NCBI GenBank assembly: GCA_022562795.1
Contig: JADFOP010000014.1
Coordinates: forward strand, 1-47,424
Length of the DNA stretch: 47,424 bases
From: Nitrospinota bacterium
GTDB lineage: Bacteria; JADFOP01
Direction of reading: 5' to 3'
Numbering within the stretch: the stretch's first letter is position 1; each line of letters begins with the position of its first letter. Of this stretch, positions 5,490 to 23,648 are shown piece by piece. The notes below the pieces were generated by a model. It was not told the DNA's origin, did no database searches, and worked only from the letters and a program-made list of their open reading frames with translations. Made by a program: the position numbers and the translations under genes.

Positions 5490-5936
5490 ATGACCTTGGA
5501 GCGGAAGGCCCGCGAGCTCAACCGCTACATAAACGTTATGGTGGAGCGCTTCATCTACGCTGAGGGCGCCATGGGCCCTTCGGCCGAGCTCTCCCGGCAA
5601 GAGCTCATCGCCCTAAGGCTGTTGGGCTTCCACGGCCGCCGGACGATGACCAAGCTCGCCGAGGAAGCGGGGGTGGCGCCGGCGACGATGACCGGCATAG
5701 TGGAAAAGTTGGTGACCCGGGGCCTTCTCGTACGCCAGAGGCGCGCCGACGACCGCCGCGTGGTGGAGGTCACCTTAACCCCCCAAGGCGAGGTGGCGTT
5801 CAAAGATAGCGTAGAGCTCCACATGCGGATGGCCCGCGAACTGCTGCTGGCCCTCGACGAGGGGGAGCAGGAGGCCATGCTTATGACTCTTAGGAAGATC
5901 ACCGGCGTCGGGCACTTGGACGAGTCAACGTCGTGA
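5490..5936 (+). CDS. MarR family transcriptional regulator
   Basis: wHTH with TMTGIVEKLVTRGLLVRQRRADDRRVVEVTLTPQG. Confidence 0.9.
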   Translation: MTLERKARELNRYINVMVERFIYAEGAMGPSAELSRQELIALRLLGFHGRRTMTKLAEEAGVAPATMTGIVEKLVTRGLLVRQRRADDRRVVEVTLTPQGEVAFKDSVELHMRMARELLLALDEGEQEAMLMTLRKITGVGHLDESTS

Positions 5937-7216
5937 GCGCATTGGCCGAAAAGGGGGCCATACGAGGCCCCGCTCGGGTAGTGGCCGCGGGAGCCGTCGT
6001 GGCCATGGTGGCAGCCACGGTGGCTATCGCCCTTTGGATTATCTCGGTGAAGAATACCCCTCCTGAGGCTCCTTCGACCCCGATGAAACGAATTCCGGTG
6101 GAGACGGTCGTCGTCCGGCATGAGACGTTCACCCACCAGATGCATGCCCTCGGGACCGTCACGCCTATACGCGAGGCCTCTGTCGCCTCCCAGGTGGTAG
6201 GGCCCATCGTGGCTATCCCGGAAGGAGTCGAGCTGGGAGCCCCGATAGAGAAAGGTCAGTTGCTGGCCCAGATCAAGCCGACGAGCTATGAGATTGCCCA
6301 CCAAGAGGCCGAAGCCCTGCTTGCCCAGCGGCGGGCCGCCTACCAGGAGCAGCGCCGCGAAAGCGAGAAGCGCACCGTGCTCTTCAAGATCGCAGAGGAG
6401 AACGTCGGGATCGTCAAGGCTGAAGCCAATCGGATCGAAAATCTATTCAAGCAGGGAGTGGTATCCCACTCGGAGAACGACGCCGCGCGGGGGCGGCTGA
6501 CCCAAGCTCGCATCGAGTATGAACGCCTCCGTAGCGAATACCGATCGGCCGATGCCGCCTTAAGCCGCGTGGCCGCAGAGATCGCCCAGGCCGAGGCCAG
6601 ACTCGCCGGGGCGAAGGAGGATCTCGCAAACACCCGTGTTACGGCCCCATTCGCCGGCCTCATCGCCAAGAAGGTCGCCGAGGTAGGCGACCATGTTGCC
6701 GTGGGCCAAACCATCGTTCGGCTCGTCGACATCGCACGGGTCAAGGTCCTCATTAACGTCCCCACCGAGGATATCCACGCCCTGCGGCCCGGCTTGCCCG
6801 CCGAGGTGACGGTAGCACCATTTCCCGATCGACCCCTGCTAGGGATGGTCGCTCATGTGGGCTTCGAGGGCGAGGTCACAAACCGCACCTTTCCCGTCGA
6901 GGTTATCGTGGACAACCCGCCCGGCCTGCCTCTGCGAGCGGGAATGTTCGCTAAGGTCCGCGTGGCGGTCCGCACATACGAGGAGATCATCCTAGTTGAC
7001 CGCCGGCTCATCCAACGCGGGCCAGACGGGCCAATACTCTTCGTCGCCGACAAGGAGGAGCAGCTTGCCCGTGCCCGGCCTATCCGTTTGGGCCGCCTCT
7101 TCGGTGAGCGCTACCAGGTCCTAAGGGGCCTTGCTCCCGGCGACGCTCTCATCACCGAGGGGGTGGAGCTGCTGAGCGACGGGGCCCCCATCACCTTGCC
7201 GGCCGTCACCAACTAA
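5933..7216 (+). CDS. RND efflux periplasmic adaptor (membrane fusion protein)
   Basis: N-terminal TM, lipoyl halves (VASQVVG; VTAPFAG), long helical hairpin, LRAGMFAKV. Start overlaps the marR stop. Confidence 0.9.
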   Translation: MSALAEKGAIRGPARVVAAGAVVAMVAATVAIALWIISVKNTPPEAPSTPMKRIPVETVVVRHETFTHQMHALGTVTPIREASVASQVVGPIVAIPEGVELGAPIEKGQLLAQIKPTSYEIAHQEAEALLAQRRAAYQEQRRESEKRTVLFKIAEENVGIVKAEANRIENLFKQGVVSHSENDAARGRLTQARIEYERLRSEYRSADAALSRVAAEIAQAEARLAGAKEDLANTRVTAPFAGLIAKKVAEVGDHVAVGQTIVRLVDIARVKVLINVPTEDIHALRPGLPAEVTVAPFPDRPLLGMVAHVGFEGEVTNRTFPVEVIVDNPPGLPLRAGMFAKVRVAVRTYEEIILVDRRLIQRGPDGPILFVADKEEQLARARPIRLGRLFGERYQVLRGLAPGDALITEGVELLSDGAPITLPAVTN

Positions 7217-7220
7217 GGTC

Positions 7221-10200
7221 ATGTTCACTACTCGCATGTCGGTCAACAACCCCGTCTTCGTTAACCTCGTGGTCGTCGTAATCCTTGCCCTCGGCATTGG
7301 GCTCGCTGTGACAACCATGAACCGGGAGATTTTTCCTGAATTCTCCCTGGATATGATTAGCGTTACCACCACCTTCTCCAATGCCTCTCCCGAGGAGATG
7401 GAGAAGCTCATCACCATCAAGCTCGAAGACGAGATCGACGACGTCGACGGAATCGACACCATCGAGAGCGAATCCCGCGAGGGCATAAGCCTCATAACCT
7501 TAAAGCTCCAAAGCGGAGTGGAGGACGTCAGCCGGGTCATCAACGACGTCCAGACCGCAATCGACAACATCCGAAACGAGCTTCCCCGGGAGGCCGAGAA
7601 CCCCATCGTCCAAGAGCTCAAGAGCCGATTCCCGGTCATCGTCCTCTCCATCTACGGTAAGGTCAACCCCTTCACCCTCAAGAACATCGCCGACGAGGTT
7701 GAGGAAGAGATTAAGCGCATCCCTGGCGTAAGCCGGGTCCGCGTCGTTGGAGTTGGGGACCGGGAGGTTTGGGTAGAGGTGGACCCGGCGGCGCTGGAGC
7801 GCTACGGGCTTGCCATTGGCGACATAGAGCGAGCCATAGAGGCGAAAAACCTAAACCTCCCAGGCGGAACGCTCAAGACTGCCCGTGGCGAGTATCTCGT
7901 TAGGACCGTAGGCGAGGTGACTCGGGCAGAGGAGCTGGAGCAGGTGGTGTTGAGAGCCACGCAGGAAGGGAATATCTTGACCGTGGGCCAGGTAGCCACC
8001 GTTCGGGAGACGTTTGAAGAGCCCACCACCCTAGGCCGCTTCAATGGCCGGCCGGCCATCAACCTCCAGGTGAGCAAAGAGAAGAAAGGCGATACCATCG
8101 CCATCGCCAACGCCGTCCGCCAGCTGGCCCAAGGCTACGAACGAAGGCTCCCTCCGGGGGTCCACCTTGGGGTCTACAACGACTTCTCCATCTACATCCG
8201 AAACCGCCTCAACACCCTCAAGCAGAGCGGATACATCGGGCTGATATTCGTACTCCTCGTGCTGCGGCTCTTCTTGGCGACCCGTGTCGCCATCCTGACG
8301 GCCCTAGGCATCCCGGTGGCATTTTGTGGGGCGCTGGTGATGATGTACCTCTACGGCATTTCCATCAACATGCTCTCGGCCTTCAGCCTCATCATCGTGC
8401 TCGGCATGGTTGTTGACGATGCGATTGTCGTTACAGAGAACATTTACCGCCACATGGAGGAGGGCGAAGAGCCCGAGAAGGCGGCGGTCGTTGGGACCAA
8501 CCAGGTCTTTATGCCTGTGGTCGCCTCGACCCTGACCACCATCGCTGCCTTCATCCCCATGCTAATGGTGCCTGGCACCATGGGGAAGTTTATCGCCGTC
8601 ATCCCGCTTGTAGTCTCATTTGCGCTACTTGCCTCACTCGTGGAGGCCCTCATTGTCCTTCCGTCCCACATGGCGGAGTTCGTACGGCTGAAGCCTTCGG
8701 GCAACCCCGCTAAAAGTCCGTCCGACCACTGGTTCCAGAGCGTGGTGACCGTCTACGGTCGCGTGCTGGAGCGCGTCCTTAGGTGGCGGTACGTCTTCAT
8801 CACAGGGGTGCTTTGCTTCTCAATTCTGCTCGTATTGTTCGCCAGATACCGCATTCCCTTCACCCTCTTCACCGCGTTTGAGTCCGACCAATTTTTCATC
8901 AACATGGAGGCGCCCGTTACCTATAAGCTGGAGGACACGAGCAGGGTCGCCCGGGCCGTGGAGACCATCGTCCAGCAGCTACCTCCGGAGGAGCTCTCGA
9001 CCATCGTGACGAATGTAGGGATGATCTACCTCGACGCCAACAAGGTAAAGACGGGCAGCCACCTCGCCCAGATCATCGTCGAGCTCAAGAAGATACCGCC
9101 CCGACGACGCAACTCCGACGAGGTCATCAATGCCCTCCGAGACAAGGTGGCCATGGTGCCGGGCATCAAGAAGGTCCAATTCCTCTCGCCCCAGGCCGGC
9201 CCCGGGGGGCCAGCCATAGAGATCAACGTCGAGGGCGAGGAGTTCGCCGTCCTAGGCGCCTTAGCCGGGAAGGTAGAAGATTATCTAGCTACCATACCGG
9301 GGGTGCGAGATATCCGTAACACGTTCGAGCTGGGAAAGCCCGAGCTAAAAATTTACGTCAAGCCCGAGGCCAGGGCCCTGGGGCTTACGGTCCAGGCGAT
9401 TGCGCGCCAGGTGCGCGACCGGTTTCGTGGGGCGGAGTCGAGCAAGATTCAGCTCTCCAGGGAAGATGTTCAAATTCTCGTCAAGTACCCAGAGGCGTCT
9501 CGCCGGAGCCGGCTCGACGTGGAGCGGATCAAGCTCGATGCGCCCGGGGGCCAGAAGGTCGCCTTCTCCGAAGTGGCCTACATAGTCGAGGAGAGAGGCT
9601 ACACGCAGATTTCCCGGATCGACAAGAGGCGAGCCATCACAGTGTTGGCCGACGTGGATAAAACTCAGGGCAACGCCCTGGAAATCTCCCGCTTTGTAAC
9701 GGCGCGGTTCGCCGATCTGCAAGACCGCTACCCAGGCTACCGGCTCCGTCTCAAGGGCGAGCAGAAGGACTTCGAGGAGAGTGTGGTCTCCCTCGTTAAG
9801 GCCTTCATTGTAGCCGTGCTGCTCATCTATTTCATTCTAGGAAGCGCCTTCCGCTCTTTCATCCAGCCTCTCATCATTATGGCCGCCATCCCCTTCGCTG
9901 TTGACGGCGTCATCGTTGGCCACATCGCGATGGGGATGAACCTGACGTTCCTCTCCCTTATCGGGACGGTAGCCCTGGCCGGGATTGTCGTTAACGATAG
10001 CCTCGTCCTTGTGGATTTTATCAACAACCTCCGCCGCCGGGGTCTCGAGCTGACCGAAGCCATTGTGGAGGGCGGAAAGCTTCGCATCCGGGCCATTTGC
10101 CTGACCTCCCTTACAACCATCGCGGGCCTCTCGCCGCTGGCCTTCTTCGCCTCGGGCCAGGCCCGCTTCCTCATGCCCATGGCGCTGTCCATTGTCTGGG

Positions 10201-10334
10201 GTCTGGCCTTCTCCACCGTTTTGATACTCCTCGTCATCCCGTGCTTCTATGCCGCCGTGGACGACCTGAAGCGGGCCTCGCGCCGACTTGTAGGACTTAA
10301 CGCACGCCGTAGGGCCACCGTTACTCAAGGGTGA
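7221..10334 (+). CDS. RND efflux permease (AcrB/AcrD/AcrF family)
   Basis: 1037 aa. GMVVDDAIVVTENI, GIVVNDSLVLVD, RIRAICLTSLTTIAGLSPL. Confidence 0.93.
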   Translation: MFTTRMSVNNPVFVNLVVVVILALGIGLAVTTMNREIFPEFSLDMISVTTTFSNASPEEMEKLITIKLEDEIDDVDGIDTIESESREGISLITLKLQSGVEDVSRVINDVQTAIDNIRNELPREAENPIVQELKSRFPVIVLSIYGKVNPFTLKNIADEVEEEIKRIPGVSRVRVVGVGDREVWVEVDPAALERYGLAIGDIERAIEAKNLNLPGGTLKTARGEYLVRTVGEVTRAEELEQVVLRATQEGNILTVGQVATVRETFEEPTTLGRFNGRPAINLQVSKEKKGDTIAIANAVRQLAQGYERRLPPGVHLGVYNDFSIYIRNRLNTLKQSGYIGLIFVLLVLRLFLATRVAILTALGIPVAFCGALVMMYLYGISINMLSAFSLIIVLGMVVDDAIVVTENIYRHMEEGEEPEKAAVVGTNQVFMPVVASTLTTIAAFIPMLMVPGTMGKFIAVIPLVVSFALLASLVEALIVLPSHMAEFVRLKPSGNPAKSPSDHWFQSVVTVYGRVLERVLRWRYVFITGVLCFSILLVLFARYRIPFTLFTAFESDQFFINMEAPVTYKLEDTSRVARAVETIVQQLPPEELSTIVTNVGMIYLDANKVKTGSHLAQIIVELKKIPPRRRNSDEVINALRDKVAMVPGIKKVQFLSPQAGPGGPAIEINVEGEEFAVLGALAGKVEDYLATIPGVRDIRNTFELGKPELKIYVKPEARALGLTVQAIARQVRDRFRGAESSKIQLSREDVQILVKYPEASRRSRLDVERIKLDAPGGQKVAFSEVAYIVEERGYTQISRIDKRRAITVLADVDKTQGNALEISRFVTARFADLQDRYPGYRLRLKGEQKDFEESVVSLVKAFIVAVLLIYFILGSAFRSFIQPLIIMAAIPFAVDGVIVGHIAMGMNLTFLSLIGTVALAGIVVNDSLVLVDFINNLRRRGLELTEAIVEGGKLRIRAICLTSLTTIAGLSPLAFFASGQARFLMPMALSIVWGLAFSTVLILLVIPCFYAAVDDLKRASRRLVGLNARRRATVTQG

Positions 10335-10410
10335 GCGTCTTGCCGGGGTCGGGCGTGCCGTGATAGGGTGCGTGTTGCCTGGACAAGGCACTATGAGGCG
10401 ATCTTAAGCC

Positions 10411-10800
10411 ATGACCGTTCTCAATACACTTGCCATCGTGCTGGGGGTTCTGGCGGTTGCCAAGAGCCTTACTGCGGCGATTTGGCCCAAGGGCTACCGC
10501 GACTTTACTAAGAAGATGCTCGAGAGCGATGTGATACTTCGCGTATTGGCCGTCGTCCCCATCCTAATTGGTGGCATCATCGTCGTGGCCCTCCTCAAGG
10601 GTCGAACGTGGTTGGAGGTTGTTCTCGTCGCCATGGCATTCGTCTACCTCCCGCTTGGGGCGATGTTGATCTGGGACCCAGACCCATACCGGCGGTTGGC
10701 CACCAAGCTCCTGCACTCCGGTGACCTCACCTTTCGGGCTTTGTGCGGCATCGGCATCCTCATCGGCATCCTCCTCTTTTTGCTCGGCATCTTCGGGTAG
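10411..10800 (+). CDS. Small 4-TM membrane protein (internally repeated, DUF2065-like)
   Basis: Two repeats of hydrophobic helix-P..YR...K.L.S....R-helix. RBS-like GAGG upstream. Confidence 0.55.
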   Translation: MTVLNTLAIVLGVLAVAKSLTAAIWPKGYRDFTKKMLESDVILRVLAVVPILIGGIIVVALLKGRTWLEVVLVAMAFVYLPLGAMLIWDPDPYRRLATKLLHSGDLTFRALCGIGILIGILLFLLGIFG

Positions 10801-10865
10801 AGAGGGCAAAAGTGCTCCGTCTCTCCCGGTAGTGGAGCGATCAGCCCCGTTGCCAGACCAGCCAC

Positions 10866-10894
10866 TTGTCAAACCCCCTTTCTGGGAGTATCTT
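10866..10894 (+). promoter_or_regulatory. Sigma70-type promoter for the small selenoprotein gene
   Basis: TTGTCA-17-TATCTT. RBS GAGGAG at 10931-10936. Confidence 0.55.
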
Positions 10895-10943
10895 AGTAAA
10901 AGAAAAGGTGATTCGAGACACCGTTCGAGAGAGGAGAACTTCC

Positions 10944-11123
10944 ATGTCCGGTTGGCTAGCGCTTGGATTATTGGCGGTCTTCGTCGCCCTCTTATACAAA
11001 AAGGGGGTGTTGGGCTGACGCCCCATCGGCTCGCAGGTCTGCGGGCTTAAGTCGAAGGAGAATGGAGAAGAAGCCGCCGTCCCGGAGGGGACGGAGAAAG
11101 ACCCCGTGGAAGTCTCCCGCTAG
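10944..11123 (+). CDS. Putative 59-aa membrane-anchored selenoprotein (Sec25)
   Basis: MSGWLALGLLAVFVALLYKKGVLG-U(TGA 11016-11018)-RPIGSQVCGLKSKENGEEAAVPEGTEKDPVEVSR*. Strong RBS. fdhF-like SECIS immediately after the TGA. Confidence 0.7.
11019..11047 (+). promoter_or_regulatory. Bacterial SECIS-like hairpin
   Basis: Stem GGCTCGCA/TGCGGGCT with loop GGTC starting 18 nt after UGA. The core GCAGGTCTGC matches the E. coli fdhF SECIS apex as I recall it. Confidence 0.7.
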
Positions 11124-11154
11124 AGATAAGGCGGGAGGCTGAAATCTAACCTCC

Positions 11155-11189
11155 ACCCCCCTTGCGCCTTGGCGCTTGGGGGGTTTTTA
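11155..11189 (+). terminator. Rho-independent terminator between convergent genes
   Basis: ACCCCCC-TT-GCGCC-TT-GGCGC-TT-GGGGGGT followed by a T run. Confidence 0.65.
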
Positions 11190-11196
11190 TTATCAG

Positions 11197-11742
11197 TTAG
11201 AAGCCGAGCTGGCGAAGCAGGGTCTGGTAGAATGGGTCCCTAAGATAGAGTTTTTCGAGTTGGAGCCCGGCCACACAGGCCTCGAAGCGGTCGGAGAGCT
11301 CGCGAAACAGTGGGGCGTAGGGTTTCAAAGGGTCTATCCGGGCGAGGAGGGCGTAGGAGGCCTTGCCCCGCTCTATGTAGTAAATGGGCGATGCGGGCCG
11401 CCCGGCCCGCTCCAAGTATTCGGGGAAAAGGCCAGTCATGAAGAGCGCGTAGTCTCCCAGGTGCTTGTATGCGCGCCTATGTCCCATCTCTCCAGCGGAT
11501 TCGGCAGCCTCCACCATCTCGAAGAGATATTCGAGGCGATGGCCTTCGGCGTCGGTGAGCTTGAAGAGCCGCTCGATGTGGACGAATTCCACCAGCACCC
11601 CGGCCACGTAATGTGCTAGGTCTTCGCCCCCGACTCCCACCGAATGAAAGCAGCCCACCGTGAGGCGCCTCAGGAGACTAACAAGCGGATGGTCAGGGGG
11701 AATGGGGCGGGCTGGAGAGGGGTCGAACCAGAAGCTCCCCAT
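11197..11742 (-). CDS. Conserved hypothetical protein
   Basis: Protein-like ORF with KHLGDYALFMTGLFPEYL and YYIERGKASY. Directly downstream of hflX on the same strand. Confidence 0.7.
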   Translation of the reverse strand: MGSFWFDPSPARPIPPDHPLVSLLRRLTVGCFHSVGVGGEDLAHYVAGVLVEFVHIERLFKLTDAEGHRLEYLFEMVEAAESAGEMGHRRAYKHLGDYALFMTGLFPEYLERAGRPASPIYYIERGKASYALLARIDPLKPYAPLFRELSDRFEACVAGLQLEKLYLRDPFYQTLLRQLGF

Positions 11743-11789
11743 TGCATCGGGGGTGAGCAGGGCCGTCCACCTCCTTCGATCCAGATTTC

Positions 11790-13484
11790 TCAGGAGGACA
11801 GACTGGCCGAGGCCTTATTAAGCTCGGCGGCCGCCCGCTGAACGGAGTCCGAGAGGTCCAGGAGCTCGAATAGCCTCTCCTCCACCGCCTCGATGAAAGC
11901 AGGTAAGGTCGTCCCATCGAGGGCGCTGATCGCCACGCCTCCGTGGCGGCGGACGACGTGAACACTTTGGGCGGGATCGACCAGGTCTGCCTTGTTGAAG
12001 ACCACCATACGGGGAATCTCTCCGTATCCCAGCTCAGCCAGGATCTTCTGGACGCTTCGCATGTGGTCCTCGTAAGAGGGGCTCGAGAGATCAACCACGT
12101 GGAGCAGGAGGTCGGCCTCTGCGAGCTCCTCCAGGGTGGCGTGGAACGCTTGGAGGAGATCCTTGGGGAGGTCGCGGATGAAGCCGACCGTGTCGGTGAT
12201 GATGACCTCCAGATCCCGTGGAAACCGGAGCCGGCGGGAGACCGGGTCGAGGGTGGAGAAAAGGCGGTTGTCCACGGCGACCTCTGATCGGGTTAAGGCG
12301 TTGAGAAGAGCGGACTTACCGGCGTTGGTGTAGCCGATTATGGAGAGGACCGGCATACCTGCGCGCTGGCGTCTGGCCCTCCTCTGGACACGGGCCCGCC
12401 CAATCCCCTTGAGCTGCCGCTCCAGGCGATGGATACGAGCCCGGATGCGGCGGCGGTCGATCTCGAGCTTTGTCTCGCCGGGGCCCCGGCCGCCGATGCC
12501 GCCGGTCAGACGGGAGAGGGCCTCGCCCTTGCCCACCAGCCTCGAGAGCCTGTAGCGCAGCTGCGCCAGCTCGACCTGCATCTTCCCTTCCCGGCTGGCC
12601 GCCCGCTGTGCGAAGATGTCGAGAATGAGTTGAGTCCGGTCGAGAATCTTGAGCTCGGTCCCATCGGTCAGGGACCTAATTTGGGCCGTGGTGAGCTCCC
12701 CGTCAAAGATGAGCATATCGGCCTCGCGTTGCATACTCCTGATTGATATCTCTTGCAGCTTCCCACGGCCGACCACGAATTTGGGGTCCACCCGACCCCT
12801 TGTCTGGACGACGGTGTCGACAACCACGACACCCGCCGAGCGGGCCAGCTCTACTAACTCTCCCAAAGAGGCCTCCGACTCGGTTTGGGATCCTGTAGAG
12901 ACGTGGATGCAGATCGCCCGGTCCCGCGCGTCGCCGATGGGCCGGGCGCTGGTGGCCCGGGCAAGCTCTTCTTCCAGCGAGGCGATGGTCTCAGCAAAAT
13001 CGAGGTCGAGGTCGTGGACCAGCGATGGCTCCAGCAGCCGCCAGGGGTCCGCCTCGTTGCCGTCGGGCATGAGATGGGCCGAGTGGACGAGCCCCGGAAG
13101 ACCATCCTCGGTAACCTCAAGAGCCGTCATCATGTCGAGTCTGAGGACCGCGAGATCGACAAGGTCGTCTCGGCTTAGGCCCTCTTGGCCGAGGTGGGTA
13201 TGGAGGCATCGAAGGCCCCTGAGCCGCTGCCTGCCCGTCCGGAACCGCTTGAGGGGTGGGATTTCAATCTCCCTGGGGGTCCCGACGATGACGGCCTCCA
13301 CGCGGCCGCGACGGTTCACGAGGAGGCCGACCTGCCGGCCGGTCTCCTGCGTGAGGTCGACCATGCTGCGGGCAAGCTCTGGGGTCAGTAGCTCCTTGGG
13401 CGGGATACGGCGTCGATAGAGCCGTTCAAAGGCTTTTAGCTGGCTGGGTTTCAGGCCGACGAGCGAACCGTAAAGGGTGCTGAT
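11790..13484 (-). CDS. hflX: GTPase HflX (long form), predicted ATC start codon
   Basis: GGRGPGET, G1 GYTNAGKS, LFSTLDP, DTVGFI, NKAD. The reading frame extends 40 codons above the track ATG (ISTLYGSLVGLKPSQLKAFERLYRRRIPP) to an ATC 9 nt after GGAGG. Confidence 0.88.
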   Translation of the reverse strand: MSTLYGSLVGLKPSQLKAFERLYRRRIPPKELLTPELARSMVDLTQETGRQVGLLVNRRGRVEAVIVGTPREIEIPPLKRFRTGRQRLRGLRCLHTHLGQEGLSRDDLVDLAVLRLDMMTALEVTEDGLPGLVHSAHLMPDGNEADPWRLLEPSLVHDLDLDFAETIASLEEELARATSARPIGDARDRAICIHVSTGSQTESEASLGELVELARSAGVVVVDTVVQTRGRVDPKFVVGRGKLQEISIRSMQREADMLIFDGELTTAQIRSLTDGTELKILDRTQLILDIFAQRAASREGKMQVELAQLRYRLSRLVGKGEALSRLTGGIGGRGPGETKLEIDRRRIRARIHRLERQLKGIGRARVQRRARRQRAGMPVLSIIGYTNAGKSALLNALTRSEVAVDNRLFSTLDPVSRRLRFPRDLEVIITDTVGFIRDLPKDLLQAFHATLEELAEADLLLHVVDLSSPSYEDHMRSVQKILAELGYGEIPRMVVFNKADLVDPAQSVHVVRRHGGVAISALDGTTLPAFIEAVEERLFELLDLSDSVQRAAAELNKASASLSS

Positions 13485-13615: not shown

Positions 13616-16430
13616 TCATCGGGCTTGGGATCCCTGTAGCCGCTCCAGCGCCCTTTGGACGGCCGCGCGGACCGCATCGTTCCGGGTAGTGGAGCCAAGC
13701 CGCTCCAGGGGTTGGCGGGCCGCCGGGTCGCCCAATCGCCCGAGAGCTTCGACCAGCGCCGCCTTAACGGGCGGGGGGTAGCGGCGCTCCAGGTGGTCGA
13801 TGAGCAACGGGACCACCTGCCTGTCGCCCAAGGCCCCCATCGTTAGGGCGGCCCGCTGGCGCTCCCCGTCGTCGGCCGCGTGGAGAAACCGCCTCAGGAT
13901 GGGCCGAAAGGCCCCAGGGGGCCGCCTGGCGGCCACCCACTGGAGCAACCGGTCGCTGACGGCCGGCGGGAGGGAATCGGGCGAAGCCAACGCATTGAGG
14001 TACGACGATGATGCCATTCCTATGCGCTCCTCGCGTTCGTGAACGAGCCCGAGCCCTACCCACGCCCCGGGGTGTTCATCGTCCAGGCGGACCGCTTTCT
14101 CAAACTGCTGGCGGGCGCGTTTGAGGAGACCCTTCTCGAAGCAGATCCGCCCTGCCCGGACGGACTTCCGGACGGCCTCGTCCACAGCGATTTGTCGATC
14201 TAAGAGAGTCTCTAAACGCTTCACAGGACGCCCCTGCCGCGAACGGACGGCCTTTAGGCCCTCGAGGGCGGGTCGCCACCTGGGGTCGGCGACCAGGGCC
14301 CGGGTGAACCAGGCCGCGGCGGCGTTACGGTCGCCTGCGGAGAGGGCGAGCTGTCCGAGGGCGGCCGCCGGGGCCGGCACGTCAGGGTCGCGTTCGACGG
14401 CGGCTCTGTAATTCGCCTCGGCCTTATCCTTTAGCCCCCTGCTTCGGTAGTGGTCACCCAGGGCGACCAGGGCGGCCGTCCCCTCTTTTTCCAGGGCCGA
14501 GGCCTGCTTGAGATGCTTCTCGGCGGCTTTGATGTGGCCCTCCTCACGCTCGAGGGCCCCGAACGCCAGGTGGTTGGCGAAAGAGGAGGGGCTTAGGCGC
14601 AGGGCGGCCGTGAGGTGTCGCCTGGCGGCTTTCCTGTCGCCCCGGCCCAGGGCCGTCCGGCCCAGGATTGTGAGCAGCTCAGGGTCCCGCCCTCGGCTTT
14701 CGGCCCAGGGCTGGAGGACCCGGCTTGCGGCCCCGGCCTCACCAGCCTCAAGAAGGAGCGCCGCGTAAGCCACGCCCGCCGGCCGGTGGTCGGGCATGAT
14801 GGCGTGGGCGCGACTGAGGTGTGTTAGGGCTTCGTCGGCCAAGCCCAGGTCCTTCATGTGGCGGCCGAGCTCGAAGTGGGCCGGCCCCAGGGAGGGCTCC
14901 ACGACGGTTGCATGCGTTAGGTGGTCGATGCCCTCGGCGAAGGTGGCCTCCTCCACTGTAAGAATGGAGCCCAGGAGGTAGCGGGCCTCGGCGTCTGAGG
15001 CCGACAGGGAAACGGCCTCTCTAGCAGCGAGGGCCGCCTGCTTGAGATCGCCCCTCTTCCAGTGCGCCTCGGCCACCAGGCGGAAGCGCTCACGGCGGGC
15101 CAGGCCCATCGTCGGCGGGGAGCCGCCGGCTGGCGGGGGGGCTACCTCGGCAGACCAGCCTAGGGACCGGAAGGCCTCCAAGTCCTTCGGTGGGACCCCT
15201 TCGAGGATGAGCACCCGGTCGCCCCGTCGCTCGATGACGCCCAGGCCCTGGGCTCTACGGGCCTTCCATGACAAACCGCCGAATCCTGACGCGCTCGCCT
15301 CCGTGGACGGACGGGCGGCGGCTCCGCGCCGATAGGCCTCGACGAACTCTTCTGCGTCCCGCTCTGTGTCCCAAACGAATGCCACAAGAGCGACGGCCCG
15401 GCCCGCCCCCTCCACCTCTTCCAATACGAGGTAGCGGTCGCCTCCCCATCCGGCGGCCGCCTCCAGCGCCTCGATTTCATCGGCCGCGAACGGCTTCACC
15501 AGAAGGTAGGCTCCGAACTCCCCGAGGGTGTTGGCATCGAGTCGTCGCCACCTGCCCCTTAGCGCTCCTGGCACGGCGGGCCATCGAACACGCCTCGGCG
15601 GGTCGGGGGTCACTAGGAAGCGTTCCGGGTGGAGCACCTGTTCGGCCGAAGCGGGTGGCGCATCGTAGAGCTCGTCGACCCCGCTCCAGGGCCGCCGCCG
15701 ACGGACGGCCTTGATGAAGGGCAGCCCCGCCTCGTAGGGGAAGTAGATGAAGTCCCGCATGACGGGCGGCTCGTCCTTGAAGGCCTCCTGCTCCCTCCAG
15801 GTAAGCGAGAAGCTCGTCGGTGGGCACGGTGTAGAAGCCCTGTCCGGATAGCCCCAAGGTGAAATCGAGCATAATGGCTGTGGCTTCGCCTTCGAGCAGG
15901 GCCTGGAGGGCCGTCCTGGCGTCCTCATCATCCTTCAGGGCCTTGAGGCGCGCGTAGACGTGGAAGTGCTGGTCCTGGAGGGCGTGGACGAGCTCATGTA
16001 GGACGACGGGGGCGTGGAGCGAGGCATCGGCCTTGGTCGAAAGGAAGAAGGTTTTGGCCTTGAAGTCGTAAAAGCCCAGGGCCTGGGAGGCCAGCAGCGC
16101 CACGTACCTGCCGACCAGGTCGTAGTCGGTCGGGATGAGGCCCGTCAGGGCCAGGAGCCGCTGGAGGGCGGTCAGCTGCCCGGTCGTGTACTCCTCCTCG
16201 ATCCGCTTCTTGAGCAGGACTTCAAGAGCCTCCGGGCTTCGCTCGGCGATGCCTACAGTGCCCTTGGGCTTTAAGCCCCGGATACGTTTGACTTCCCTAA
16301 ACATGGCGAAGGTAAGGTCCGAGAGGGATTCACCCCAGGCCGGGGCTGAAGCGAAGGGGAGAGCCAAAGCGAGCACCAGCGCCGCAACTAGACGGGGGCG
16401 GAGCAAAAGGGAGGGGCGGTGGGCGACCAA
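13616..16430 (-). pseudogene. Secreted HExxH metallopeptidase-like + TPR + HEAT repeat protein, split by a frameshift near 15790-15800
   Basis: N-terminal frame: signal peptide, VVLHELVHALQDQHF, ALLEGEAT. It continues in a second frame as QEAFKDEPPVMRDFIYFPYEAGLPF...PPASAEQVLHPE...AAAGWGGDRY, then TPRs and HEAT repeats. Confidence 0.7.
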
Positions 16431-16562
16431 GGGGCGGCTCCACGTGGGCGGTTTTTTCTCAGGTCAGACGGCCCCATTCTAGCAGAGCCTGCGGGAGCCG
16501 GGCAAGGCGCCGGAGACGAGGGGGGAGGGCCGGAGGTGTGGGTTGTCGGGCCGACTTGTCCG

Positions 16563-17213
16563 TTACAAGTGCTCGACAAGCCTGTCAGCCATATCCTGGT
16601 TCAGCTCTTCGAGAACGGCATGCTCACCCATCGCCGCTTCGCGGTCTCCGAGCTTTGCGTAGACCAGGCCCAAAAAGTAGTGGGTTTCTGCGTGGTCGGG
16701 CTTCAGGCGGATCGCCTCTTTGAGAGCCTCGAGCGCCTCGTCGTCGCGGCCGAGGCCGAGGCAGGCTACTCCCAAACCGTAGTGGGCCCTGGAATTGTCC
16801 GGCTCCAGGAGGGTTGCCTCTCTGTGGGCCTCCACCGCTTCTTCGTTGCGGCCAAGGCCGATGTAAGCGACCCCCAGGCTGGCGTGCGCCTCGGCATCGT
16901 CGGGCTCAAGGCGGACGGCCTCGCTGCATTCAGCCTGCGCTTCTTCATACCGGCCAAGCAAGCCGTAGGCGAGCCCCAAATTGTAATGGGCCTCGGCGTA
17001 GTCTGGCTTAAGCTGCATTGCCACCTTGTACGCCTCGACCGCCTCCTCGTTTCGGTCGAGGCCCCCGTAGGCCTTCCCCAAGTGCATGTAGGCATCGGCA
17101 TCGTCGAGCTTGAGGTGGACCGCGACTTTGAGGGCCTCAAGCGCTTCTTCGTAGCGGCCGCGCTTCAGGTACGAGACTCCCAAATTGTAGTGCGCAAAGG
17201 CGCCCCCAGGCAT
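16563..17213 (-). CDS. Tetratricopeptide repeat protein
   Basis: About six 34-aa repeats (AHYNLG...GRYEEA...A..L.PD). Start at ATG 17213 after GGGAGGT. Confidence 0.85.
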   Translation of the reverse strand: MPGGAFAHYNLGVSYLKRGRYEEALEALKVAVHLKLDDADAYMHLGKAYGGLDRNEEAVEAYKVAMQLKPDYAEAHYNLGLAYGLLGRYEEAQAECSEAVRLEPDDAEAHASLGVAYIGLGRNEEAVEAHREATLLEPDNSRAHYGLGVACLGLGRDDEALEALKEAIRLKPDHAETHYFLGLVYAKLGDREAAMGEHAVLEELNQDMADRLVEHL

Positions 17214-22530: not shown

Positions 22531-23169
22531 TTGAGGGGCCGTAAGAATCTAGGCGTTCGGCTCGCCTTCGCTATAACCATCGCGGCCGTGACCTTCGGCG
22601 GCGGTCTCGGGCTGAAGGGACTCTTTGGACCCCGACCCGTTGTCATCCTGGGGGACAATCCAATCTTGGGAGAGGTCACAGCACCAATCACGATCTACGA
22701 GTTCAGCGACTATGGCTGACCCCACTGCCGAGAGGTGCAGGGTCCGCTGCATCAGCTATTGACTAAGTACTCGGGCCGGGTGAAGCTTGTCTACATCAAT
22801 GCGCCACTCTCGCCCCGCTCCACACGGGCGTCGGAGATTGCCGAATGTGCCTACCTGCAGGGTAAGTTCTGGGAGTACAACGACCTCGTGTTTGAAAACC
22901 AACCCGTCTGGGGGCCGGCCGAGGACTGGCGGGAGCGGCTGTTCTCCTACGGCAAGGAGGTCGGCCTCGACATGGCCGCCCTTGGAGATTGCCTAGAGAA
23001 GGGTATCGCCCGGCGAGCGCTAACGGCTGATATCCGCGAAATGGAGGACCAGGCGATCATGTTCACCCCCACAATCATCATGGACGACGGGCGGCGTTTC
23101 GTAGGCTCCGACCTGGAGGAGCTTCAATCGGCCCTGGAAGGGGCCCTGAGCCTGAGGAGCGGCCGGTAG
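22531..23169 (+). CDS. DsbA-like thioredoxin-fold selenoprotein (UxxC)
   Basis: The track ORFs 22531-22719 and 22735-23169 are in frame across TGA 22717-22719, giving APITIYEFSDYG-U-PHC. Also AECAYLQGKFWEY and the cis-Pro loop FTPT. SECIS-like hairpin downstream. Confidence 0.85.
22734..22753 (+). promoter_or_regulatory. SECIS-like hairpin of the dsbA gene
   Basis: GGTGCAG-GGTCCG-CTGCATC. The G-initiated loop begins 22 nt after UGA. Confidence 0.6.
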
Positions 23170-23648
23170 TGGCTGCCACGAAGAGCGGGGCGTGGAGCTC
23201 CCCGGGCACAGTGGCGGCAGCCCGGCTCCTGGTGGGGGGGGTATTTCTTGTCGCAGGGGTCGGAAAGCTATTGGAGCCTGCAGGGGCGTTTGCCCAGATC
23301 TTGGGGGCTTACCGTCTCGTGCCCGCCGAGGCTGTCCCGCTCATCGCGACATGGCTCCCGTGGGGGGAACTCGTCCTAGGCATCTACCTGATTGTGGGTT
23401 TCGAGACCCGTTGGGCCGGCGCTGCTGCGGCCGTCTGCTTCGCGGTTTTCTCCGCCGCCATCGCCACAAACTTGATTCTCGGCGCACCCCTGGAAGATTG
23501 CGGCTGCTTCGGTACCCTGCTCAAACGTGAGGGGGCCACCATCACGCTAGTCGGCGACCTCGTTCTCGGGGGCGTGAGCCTCTGGCTGGTGCGCCACCCG
23601 GTGAGCCGGACAAGCCTAGACGGATGGCTGGAGGCCAGGGGCTGGTAG
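23169..23648 (+). CDS. MauE/DoxX family membrane protein
   Basis: ARLLVGGVFLVAGVGKL, LPWGELVLG and the DCGCFG motif. Overlaps the dsbA stop. Confidence 0.88.
   Translation: MAATKSGAWSSPGTVAAARLLVGGVFLVAGVGKLLEPAGAFAQILGAYRLVPAEAVPLIATWLPWGELVLGIYLIVGFETRWAGAAAAVCFAVFSAAIATNLILGAPLEDCGCFGTLLKREGATITLVGDLVLGGVSLWLVRHPVSRTSLDGWLEARGW

Follow-up and report, generated by a model that had tools for sequence, protein, structure and literature searches.

A candidate gene for a membrane-anchored, 59-residue selenoprotein with a SECIS-like hairpin in a Nitrospinota bacterium

Bacterial selenoproteins are made through an established mechanism in which SelB and a SECIS hairpin cause an in-frame UGA to be recoded as selenocysteine (Sec); for SelB of Escherichia coli, the bulged U of the hairpin and the G and U of its loop matter for binding. 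The known bacterial families share this mechanism, and most of them combine a Sec with a nearby Cys and have Cys homologs. Among eukaryotic selenoproteins, K and S are single-pass membrane proteins that consist of an N-terminal helix and a cytosolic tail of Gly, Pro and charged residues that is predicted to be disordered, with one Sec at the C-terminal end. BSepDB holds 111 bacterial selenoprotein families. A table in a review ties such families to Pfam and NCBIfam models, and the consensus bacterial SECIS model given there has a loop of 3–9 nt, a stem of 4–16 bp, a G in the first two loop positions, a distance of 16–37 nt from the UGA and a free energy of -7.5 kcal/mol or lower (PMC13188914). 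In BSepDB, the ten genomes with the most selenoprotein genes include some labelled Nitrospinae or Nitrospinota and assigned to GTDB phylum UBA8248, which may or may not be the phylum of the genome considered here.

The locus described here lies in a window of 47,424 nt, the whole stretch of contig JADFOP010000014.1 (assembly GCA_022562795.1, Nitrospinota bacterium) that was analysed. On comparative sequence evidence we consider it to be a genuine, unannotated, monocistronic gene for a 59-residue selenoprotein, and put the probability of this at about 0.78. A selenoprotein with an intragenic SECIS is of a well-known kind; what is new is the membrane-anchored layout and the family. If true, it would bring a new architecture to selenoproteins, a family that lacks known domains and has one membrane helix with the Sec beside the membrane; standard annotation is blind to such a gene, since gene callers halt at the TGA and the 24-residue remnant is too short to keep. 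Its relevance for the selenoprotein and small-protein fields would be moderate to high, limited by a narrow distribution.

The candidate gene occupies positions 10944..11125 of the forward strand, with ATG at 10944, the putative Sec codon as codon 25 and a TAG stop at 11123-11125. Its frame is open on both sides of the TGA (11016-11018), for 24 codons upstream, which read MSGWLALGLLAVFVALLYKKGVLG, and for 34 codons downstream, which read RPIGSQVCGLKSKENGEEAAVPEGTEKDPVEVSR and end at the TAG. Residues 3-20 (10950..11003) are modelled by AlphaFold2 as a helix and make up the predicted N-terminal transmembrane segment; the helix sequence MSGWLALGLLAVFVALLY is followed by KKGVLG, and then by the TGA. 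Beyond it come Cys33 (TGC, 11040..11042) and a charged, Pro/Glu-rich tail of residues 34-59 (11043..11122) that is predicted to be disordered (pLDDT below 50). The ATG is preceded by the ribosome-binding site GAGGAG (10931..10936), 7 nt away, and by a sigma-70-like promoter-like site (10866..10894) composed of TTGTCA (10866-10871), a 17-nt spacer and TATCTT (10889-10894), which is the sole such site found by a scan of 10300-11800, where shuffled sequence gives 0.3. Downstream, between the candidate gene and a convergent gene ending at 11197, a terminator-like GC-rich stem is followed by TTTTTATTAT (11155..11193); the stem itself (11155-11184) folds with a z of -2.5, one of 200 shuffles being as good. 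All of the elements named in an earlier, sequence-only reading of this DNA, from promoter, ribosome-binding site and ATG through the helix, KKGVLG and the TGA to the 34-codon open frame and the TAG, are present where it had placed them. It had also proposed that the gene forms its own transcription unit. This is suggested by promoter-like and terminator-like sequence that is conserved in the congener described below; a rule-based scan called no terminator at the locus. Elsewhere in the window TGA terminates genes in the normal way, as it does for the RND gene at 10332, which excludes a reassigned genetic code.

Immediately after the TGA, within the coding frame, is a SECIS-like hairpin (11028..11047) with an 8-bp stem and a GGUC loop (11036-11039) that begins 17 nt after the UGA. 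These 20 nt fold at -11.4 kcal/mol (z -2.7; 5 of 200 shuffles fold as well), and the hairpin agrees in every respect with the SECIS model of PMC13188914, having a loop of 4 nt beginning GG, a stem of 8 bp, a distance of 17 nt and an energy of -11.4 kcal/mol. Longer segments around it do not fold significantly better than their shuffles (z -0.5 to +0.2), and a hairpin of equal geometry with at least 8 pairs follows 3.4% of TGA triplets, as estimated from 20,000 sampled out of the 57,607 in this genome. Hence, the hairpin by itself is modest evidence, and the case must rest on comparison with relatives. No Rfam family reaches its gathering score anywhere in the window, and at E values up to 10 there are just four sub-threshold, chance-level matches in 10850-11250.

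The sequence-only reading had likened this hairpin to the SECIS of E. coli fdhF, and the fdhF sequence that it gave proves to be exact when set against that of strain MG1655. When the window, the ortholog described below and MG1655 fdhF are aligned, 22 of 47 columns are invariant, including the 10-nt apex GCAGGTCTGC. In RNA terms the apex GCAGGUCUGC, with its GGUC loop on a GCA/UGC stem top, is identical in the window and in fdhF; in both cases the hairpin comes straight after the UGA and inside the coding frame, and the spacing is indeed nearly the same, the loop lying 17 nt after the UGA here and 18 nt after it in fdhF. Because of this shared apex, read-through should be simple to test in E. 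coli. The lower stem, however, is not conserved between the two. The predicted fold of fdhF is interrupted, whereas the 8 bp of the hairpin here, two of them G.U pairs, follow one another without a bulge, and it so lacks the bulged U of the upper stem that is a feature of the fdhF type.

The read-through peptide was searched against 41 genomes, comprising this one (G000) and 40 relatives. Matches at E < 1e-3 were confined to G000 and its single congener, G001, those in the rest having E values of 0.009 or more and the appearance of chance; there is one match in G000 itself, meaning that this genome has no Cys paralog, and no ortholog was found in the class-mate G002. The G001 ortholog (E 1e-9, 52% identity over residues 1-58) contains one in-frame TGA and reads MTGFEALGIGAVLAAVILIYRKRGSV-U-GLFGSQVCEQKPTEKGQEPAVPEGAERHPVEASHDR. 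It shares the promoter hexamers, both of which are identical within surrounding sequence that differs, as well as a ribosome-binding site (GGAGGG), the terminator-like stem and a 16-nt hairpin core without a single change, a U.G pair elsewhere in the stem of the window being U-A in G001. Homologs ending at this position in TAA or TAG would have spoken against recoding, as the sequence-only reading had recognized; the sole ortholog found (1 of 1) keeps TGA at the same position. The U-x7-C pair noted earlier has the same spacing in both Sec forms, which are known from two genomes, both of one genus.

Coding conservation past the TGA is borne out by this comparison. Over the 34 codons at 11019-11120, dN/dS relative to G001 is 0.30; 28 of the 102 bases differ, distributed 7, 7 and 14 among the first, second and third codon positions, and there is no indel. 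The same bases read in the two shifted forward frames give dN/dS values of 2.04 and 1.29, with a stop in one genome in each case. When the 28 changes were placed at random 2000 times, 1260 placements made a stop, and among the other 740 the number of non-synonymous changes was as low as the real one in just 0.7%. Before the TGA, dN/dS is about 1 in an ungapped comparison with G001, so that the helix evolves faster than the tail, which is the opposite of what would be expected of a gene for a 24-residue peptide. Two overlapping reading frames were considered as alternatives and rejected: an ORF in the +1 frame (10963-11142) contains a stop in G001 and has a dN/dS of 2.0, and the start of an antisense ORF (10841-11026) is not conserved there.

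Since the hairpin overlaps the S-Q-V-C codons, the same bases would carry both an RNA signal and a peptide, and the codon for the putative resolving Cys33 is at once part of the 3' arm at the hairpin top. If both roles are real, this is a compact case of overlapping signals. Third codon positions within the hairpin core are unchanged in G001 (0 of 5 differ), as against 14 of 29 differing in the rest of the tail (Fisher one-sided p 0.056), which hints at an added constraint at the RNA level. However, a hairpin with the loop GGCC also occurs at the corresponding place of a Cys paralog in G001 (P0005), and for this reason the stem may partly be a by-product of the conserved S-Q-x-C peptide, or else the fossil of a Sec ancestor. 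A genome-wide scan for the apex motif returned 546 occurrences; ten of these form hairpins, and three of the ten have an upstream TGA, namely selD, the candidate gene and one spurious case. Chance gives a similar fraction and the scan is not counted as evidence.

Ten studies of sediments, marine or other, account for the 20 DNA runs in which the stretch is present, and no RNA run with it was listed among 24 runs. In contigs assembled from four DNA runs of four studies, no variant is listed in 10922-11126, compared with five variant sites and one indel in the 5' flank (10883-10921) and nine variant sites and five indel places in the 3' flank (11127-11220), these counts deriving from few variant haplotypes and from contigs, which drop rare variants. 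The variant-free block ends just past the TAG at 11125 and not past the TGA at 11018.

Eight homologs without a TGA were found, comprising two G001 paralogs, which are situated 1.9 kb apart on a different contig from the ortholog, and six database proteins. When 5.8 billion protein clusters were searched with a profile, seven of 47 candidates were matches, these being the six further proteins and one of the G001 paralogs (P0004). With small variations the Cys homologs read M-[TI]-EALWIGLA...LLYKKG-CGC-AGG...[GA]S[QK]xC-E[IL]KP..., and have in common the helix and the YKK motif, followed by CGC, or by one C only, in the Sec column or beside it, and by an invariant downstream Cys. A MAFFT alignment of all ten family members places the U of the window on the second Cys of the CGC motif in seven of the eight Cys homologs; in the remaining one it coincides with the only Cys present there. 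This correspondence requires gaps in the Gly-rich loop, and by ungapped BLASTP the Sec position is preceded at a distance of two residues by the nearest Cys. The Cys33 column is invariant in 10 of 10, while the first Cys of CGC is dispensable. One Cys homolog (P0006) runs on in an uninterrupted frame into ...APAPEDAEKHPVEAYGER, a clear match to the tails of the two Sec forms; the tail is thus translated wherever no TGA intervenes.

All database matches are Cys forms; gene callers halt at the TGA, and Sec forms of this kind are therefore absent from protein databases. A profile search of 1.84 billion representative proteins gave two clusters and one hydrophobic chance match, and scans of metagenomes and of a genome collection returned one relative among 110 and one among 85 matched stretches respectively, both being Cys forms; Sec forms may be missed by these scans because the peptide patterns fit Cys forms and not the window sequence. 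None of 8000 candidates that were scored, with E values of up to 1 allowed, was a longer or fused form, which is weak evidence, and the top score in the ESM Atlas, 0.83, is below a meaningful level.

The sequence-only reading recognized no named family, and this is also our result. None of four members tested has a Pfam match at E up to 10, and NCBIfam at the same threshold gives the same four one chance-level match only (E 0.16, far below the cut-off). Nor does the candidate match any Pfam or NCBIfam model that is tabulated for bacterial selenoprotein families in the available part of PMC13188914. The word 'transmembrane' is absent from the available text of a selenoprotein review and of the BSepDB and deep-Sep papers (PMC13188914, PMC13326102, PMC12013277), where a lone membrane helix with an adjacent Sec goes unmentioned, and a full-text literature search combining selenocysteine with terms for small membrane proteins listed no paper with both. 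The family is very probably new and genus-restricted, having been seen so far in a single genus of marine-sediment bacteria.

Recoding at this locus presupposes that the organism uses Sec. A check for selA, selB, selC and selD, proposed in the sequence-only reading, was answered in part: the tRNA-Sec (77.6 bits, anticodon TCA) and selD are present, the latter scoring 307 bits, containing one in-frame TGA at its active-site motif and being cut off by a contig end, whereas searches of this assembly with TIGR00474, TIGR00475, PF03841 and PF09107 revealed neither selA nor selB. The assembly consists of 84 contigs and is estimated to be 97.1% complete. Both genes are side by side in the congener G001 and in the class-mate G002; the sequences on either side of the pair in G001 correspond to separate contigs of G000, and one of these contigs ends 845 nt past the flank. 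We read the missing pair as a putative assembly gap, though the genes may have been lost. A second Sec candidate that had been noticed in the window, a DsbA, is real, with the motif UPHC and matches to Thioredoxin_4 (E 1e-25) and DSBA that extend across the TGA. Genome-wide there are 132 CxxU or UxxC candidates, from which seven read-through frames were chosen by eye for a Pfam test; five of these have domains across the TGA, comprising AhpC/TSA twice, thioredoxin, DsbA/Thioredoxin_4 and GrdB (E 1e-154). In total, the genome contains at least six other recognisable selenoprotein genes in addition to the Sec-containing selD.

In the mechanism that we propose, the hairpin downstream of the UGA at 11016 would recruit SelB with Sec-tRNA(Sec), selenocysteine would be inserted as residue 25, and translation would proceed to the TAG at 11123. 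The product would possess a short N-terminal membrane helix (residues 3-20) and a KK-flanked C-terminal part facing the cytoplasm, an N-out/C-in orientation that we infer by the positive-inside rule from acidic or neutral N-termini and from the KK or RKR that follows the helix. AlphaFold2, with a mean pLDDT of 56, gives the helix 73-77, the rest less than 55 and the tail less than 50. Sec25 would be situated a few residues from the membrane surface and would pair with the invariant Cys33 across a Gly/Pro-containing loop, beyond which the disordered acidic tail would extend. The function we prefer for such a protein, tentatively and at slightly less than even odds if the gene is real, is that of a membrane-tethered, reversible selenenylsulfide/selenol redox centre. 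It is favoured because all members retain [U/C]25 together with C33, the first Cys of CGC being dispensable.

That the TGA is a true stop is improbable. Under this explanation the gene encodes a 24-residue hydrophobic peptide, and the hairpin and sequence downstream serve the mRNA, in its stability or regulation. In its favour, bacteria commonly have single-helix membrane peptides this small, folding of the whole segments is not significant, and selA and selB are missing from the assembly. Yet dN/dS is 0.30 after the TGA and about 1.0 in the helix, neither genome has an indel or a stop in the tail, homologs without a TGA translate the equivalent region together with the tail, and the variant-free block extends to the TAG at 11125 rather than stopping with the TGA at 11018. 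Some of the same facts could be turned in favour of a decaying pseudogene, derived from a member of the Cys family by mutation of a sense codon to TGA: TGA and TGC are one base apart, this genome has no Cys paralog, and again selA and selB were not found. Decay nonetheless seems very unlikely, given that the same TGA occurs in a congener copy that is only 52% identical, that the downstream frame is still intact and under purifying selection despite this divergence, and that the promoter-like site, ribosome-binding site and terminator-like stem are conserved in G001.

If the selenoprotein is real, the main rival to a redox centre concerns its chemistry: Sec and Cys, possibly across a dimer, may bind a metal ion or cluster without redox cycling. 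We regard this as doubtful even on the assumption of a real gene, and as somewhat unlikely once the uncertainty of the gene itself is included. Sec is a metal ligand in some enzymes, and the Cys forms, with three cysteines (CGC and C) just after the helix, are reminiscent of the FeoB-associated Cys-rich membrane proteins (PF12669), to which the family can be likened by layout only, both being small with an N-terminal helix, basic residues and a Gly/Cys motif. However, PF12669 has no match in four members of the family at E up to 10, nor in either the G000 or the G001 genome at E up to 1, no feoB was seen among the neighbouring genes scanned and no metal transporter among 20 window genes scanned, and the Sec forms keep only two candidate ligands. 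A Cys paralog that shares an operon with a thioredoxin-fold gene points to redox chemistry instead. A further possibility is that the selenoprotein assists the neighbouring RND efflux pump as an accessory subunit, by analogy with AcrZ, a small accessory protein of AcrB. An AcrB-family gene precedes the candidate gene by about 600 nt on the same strand, and the candidate product would have a single helix and a cytoplasmic tail; but the MarR-MFP-RND block (5490-10334) is missing at the syntenic site in G001, the candidate gene has its own promoter-like site, and there is no Pfam family match. We consider this the least credible of the explanations, in keeping with the sequence-only reading, which had seen no functional link to that operon.

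A more far-reaching version of the selenoprotein reading, which we regard as speculative and improbable, makes the product a bacterial counterpart of selenoproteins K and S and places it among the smallest selenoproteins known, with a selenol at the inner face of the membrane acting on targets embedded there, such as oxidised lipids, quinones or partner membrane proteins. The layout is alike in its N-terminal helix, predicted disordered cytosolic tail and single Sec, but there is no sequence relation (no Pfam match at E up to 10), the candidate Sec is beside the membrane at residue 25 of 59 and not at the C-terminal end as in K and S, and the candidate SECIS is of the bacterial type and inside the coding region. 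In this version selenium supply would also decide between products of 24 and 59 residues; with the UGA directly after the helix, it would toggle between a bare membrane peptide and an active form.

A link of the candidate gene to a DsbH/DUF255 gene was considered and rejected, since it fails in G000, where the homolog of this gene has only repeat-rich, non-coding sequence upstream and the linkage is absent. In G001, by contrast, one Cys paralog runs into the beginning of a signal-peptide ORF, and after this ORF comes the DsbH/DUF255 thioredoxin-fold gene; the linkage holds in one metagenome contig as well. This neighbourhood fits thiol chemistry, although the predicted topologies differ. At the locus of the Sec form the G001 flanks correspond to those of the window, in that a 129-residue membrane protein is encoded upstream, while a 181-residue gene and hflX lie downstream in convergent orientation, and the ortholog there is framed by Clp, the 129-residue membrane protein and HflX.

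The window's own genome (G000) carries tRNA-Sec and selD, together with at least seven genes for selenoproteins. Within the window, a DsbA-like selenoprotein gene (22531-23170, + strand) has an in-frame TGA at 22717, and its active site reads U-P-H-C; this TGA falls inside matches to both DSBA and Thioredoxin_4 (E 1e-25), a hairpin with the loop GGUCCG lies 21 nt 3' of it, and a MauE/DoxX membrane protein gene (23169-23648) follows directly. The family of this gene, DsbA-like form 1 (UxxC), is already known among selenoproteins. Pfam domains also bridge an in-frame TGA in five further frames of the assembly (C68:11008-12351, - strand; C1:42342-42893; C29:27258-27728; C48:7470-7988; C61:15389-16204), comprising one GrdB-like domain (E 1e-154), two AhpC/TSA, one thioredoxin and one DsbA-like, this second DsbA-like frame carrying U-P-F-C.

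The selD gene itself contains an in-frame TGA and is truncated at a contig end (C41:1-672, - strand), while its C-terminal part is fused in frame behind PAS/histidine-kinase-like sequence on another contig (C77:16036-16257, - strand), an arrangement that looks like an assembly join. Neither selA nor selB was found in a search of the whole G000 assembly. The two genes are adjacent in the one congener genome compared, G001 (C277:5976-9259), and the flanks of that pair correspond to two G000 contigs, C52 and C3.

Immediately 5' of the candidate membrane-anchored selenoprotein gene lies a gene for a 129-residue multi-helix membrane protein (10411-10800, + strand), for which no Pfam match above threshold was found. 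It is kept in this position in both G000 and G001; the class-mate genome G002 also has it, but there another gene comes next. Further upstream, MarR, membrane-fusion and AcrB-family RND genes form one block (5490-10334). In G001 this block does not separate the gene for the 129-residue membrane protein from that for the Clp ATPase, and it was therefore either inserted in the window genome or deleted in G001.

In P0005, one of the two cysteine-containing, TGA-free paralogs in G001, a hairpin with a GGCC loop (L038:1515-1545 on C199, - strand) covers the A-S-Q-A-C-E codons, at the position that the SECIS occupies in the two Sec forms. This hairpin may be the relic of a former SECIS, or it may follow from the peptide motif itself. 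In G000, a short palindromic repeat recurs several times and fills the region 5' of the DsbH/DUF255 homolog, counterpart of a thioredoxin-fold gene near a G001 cysteine paralog (repeat region: C27, about 15900-16700, - strand).
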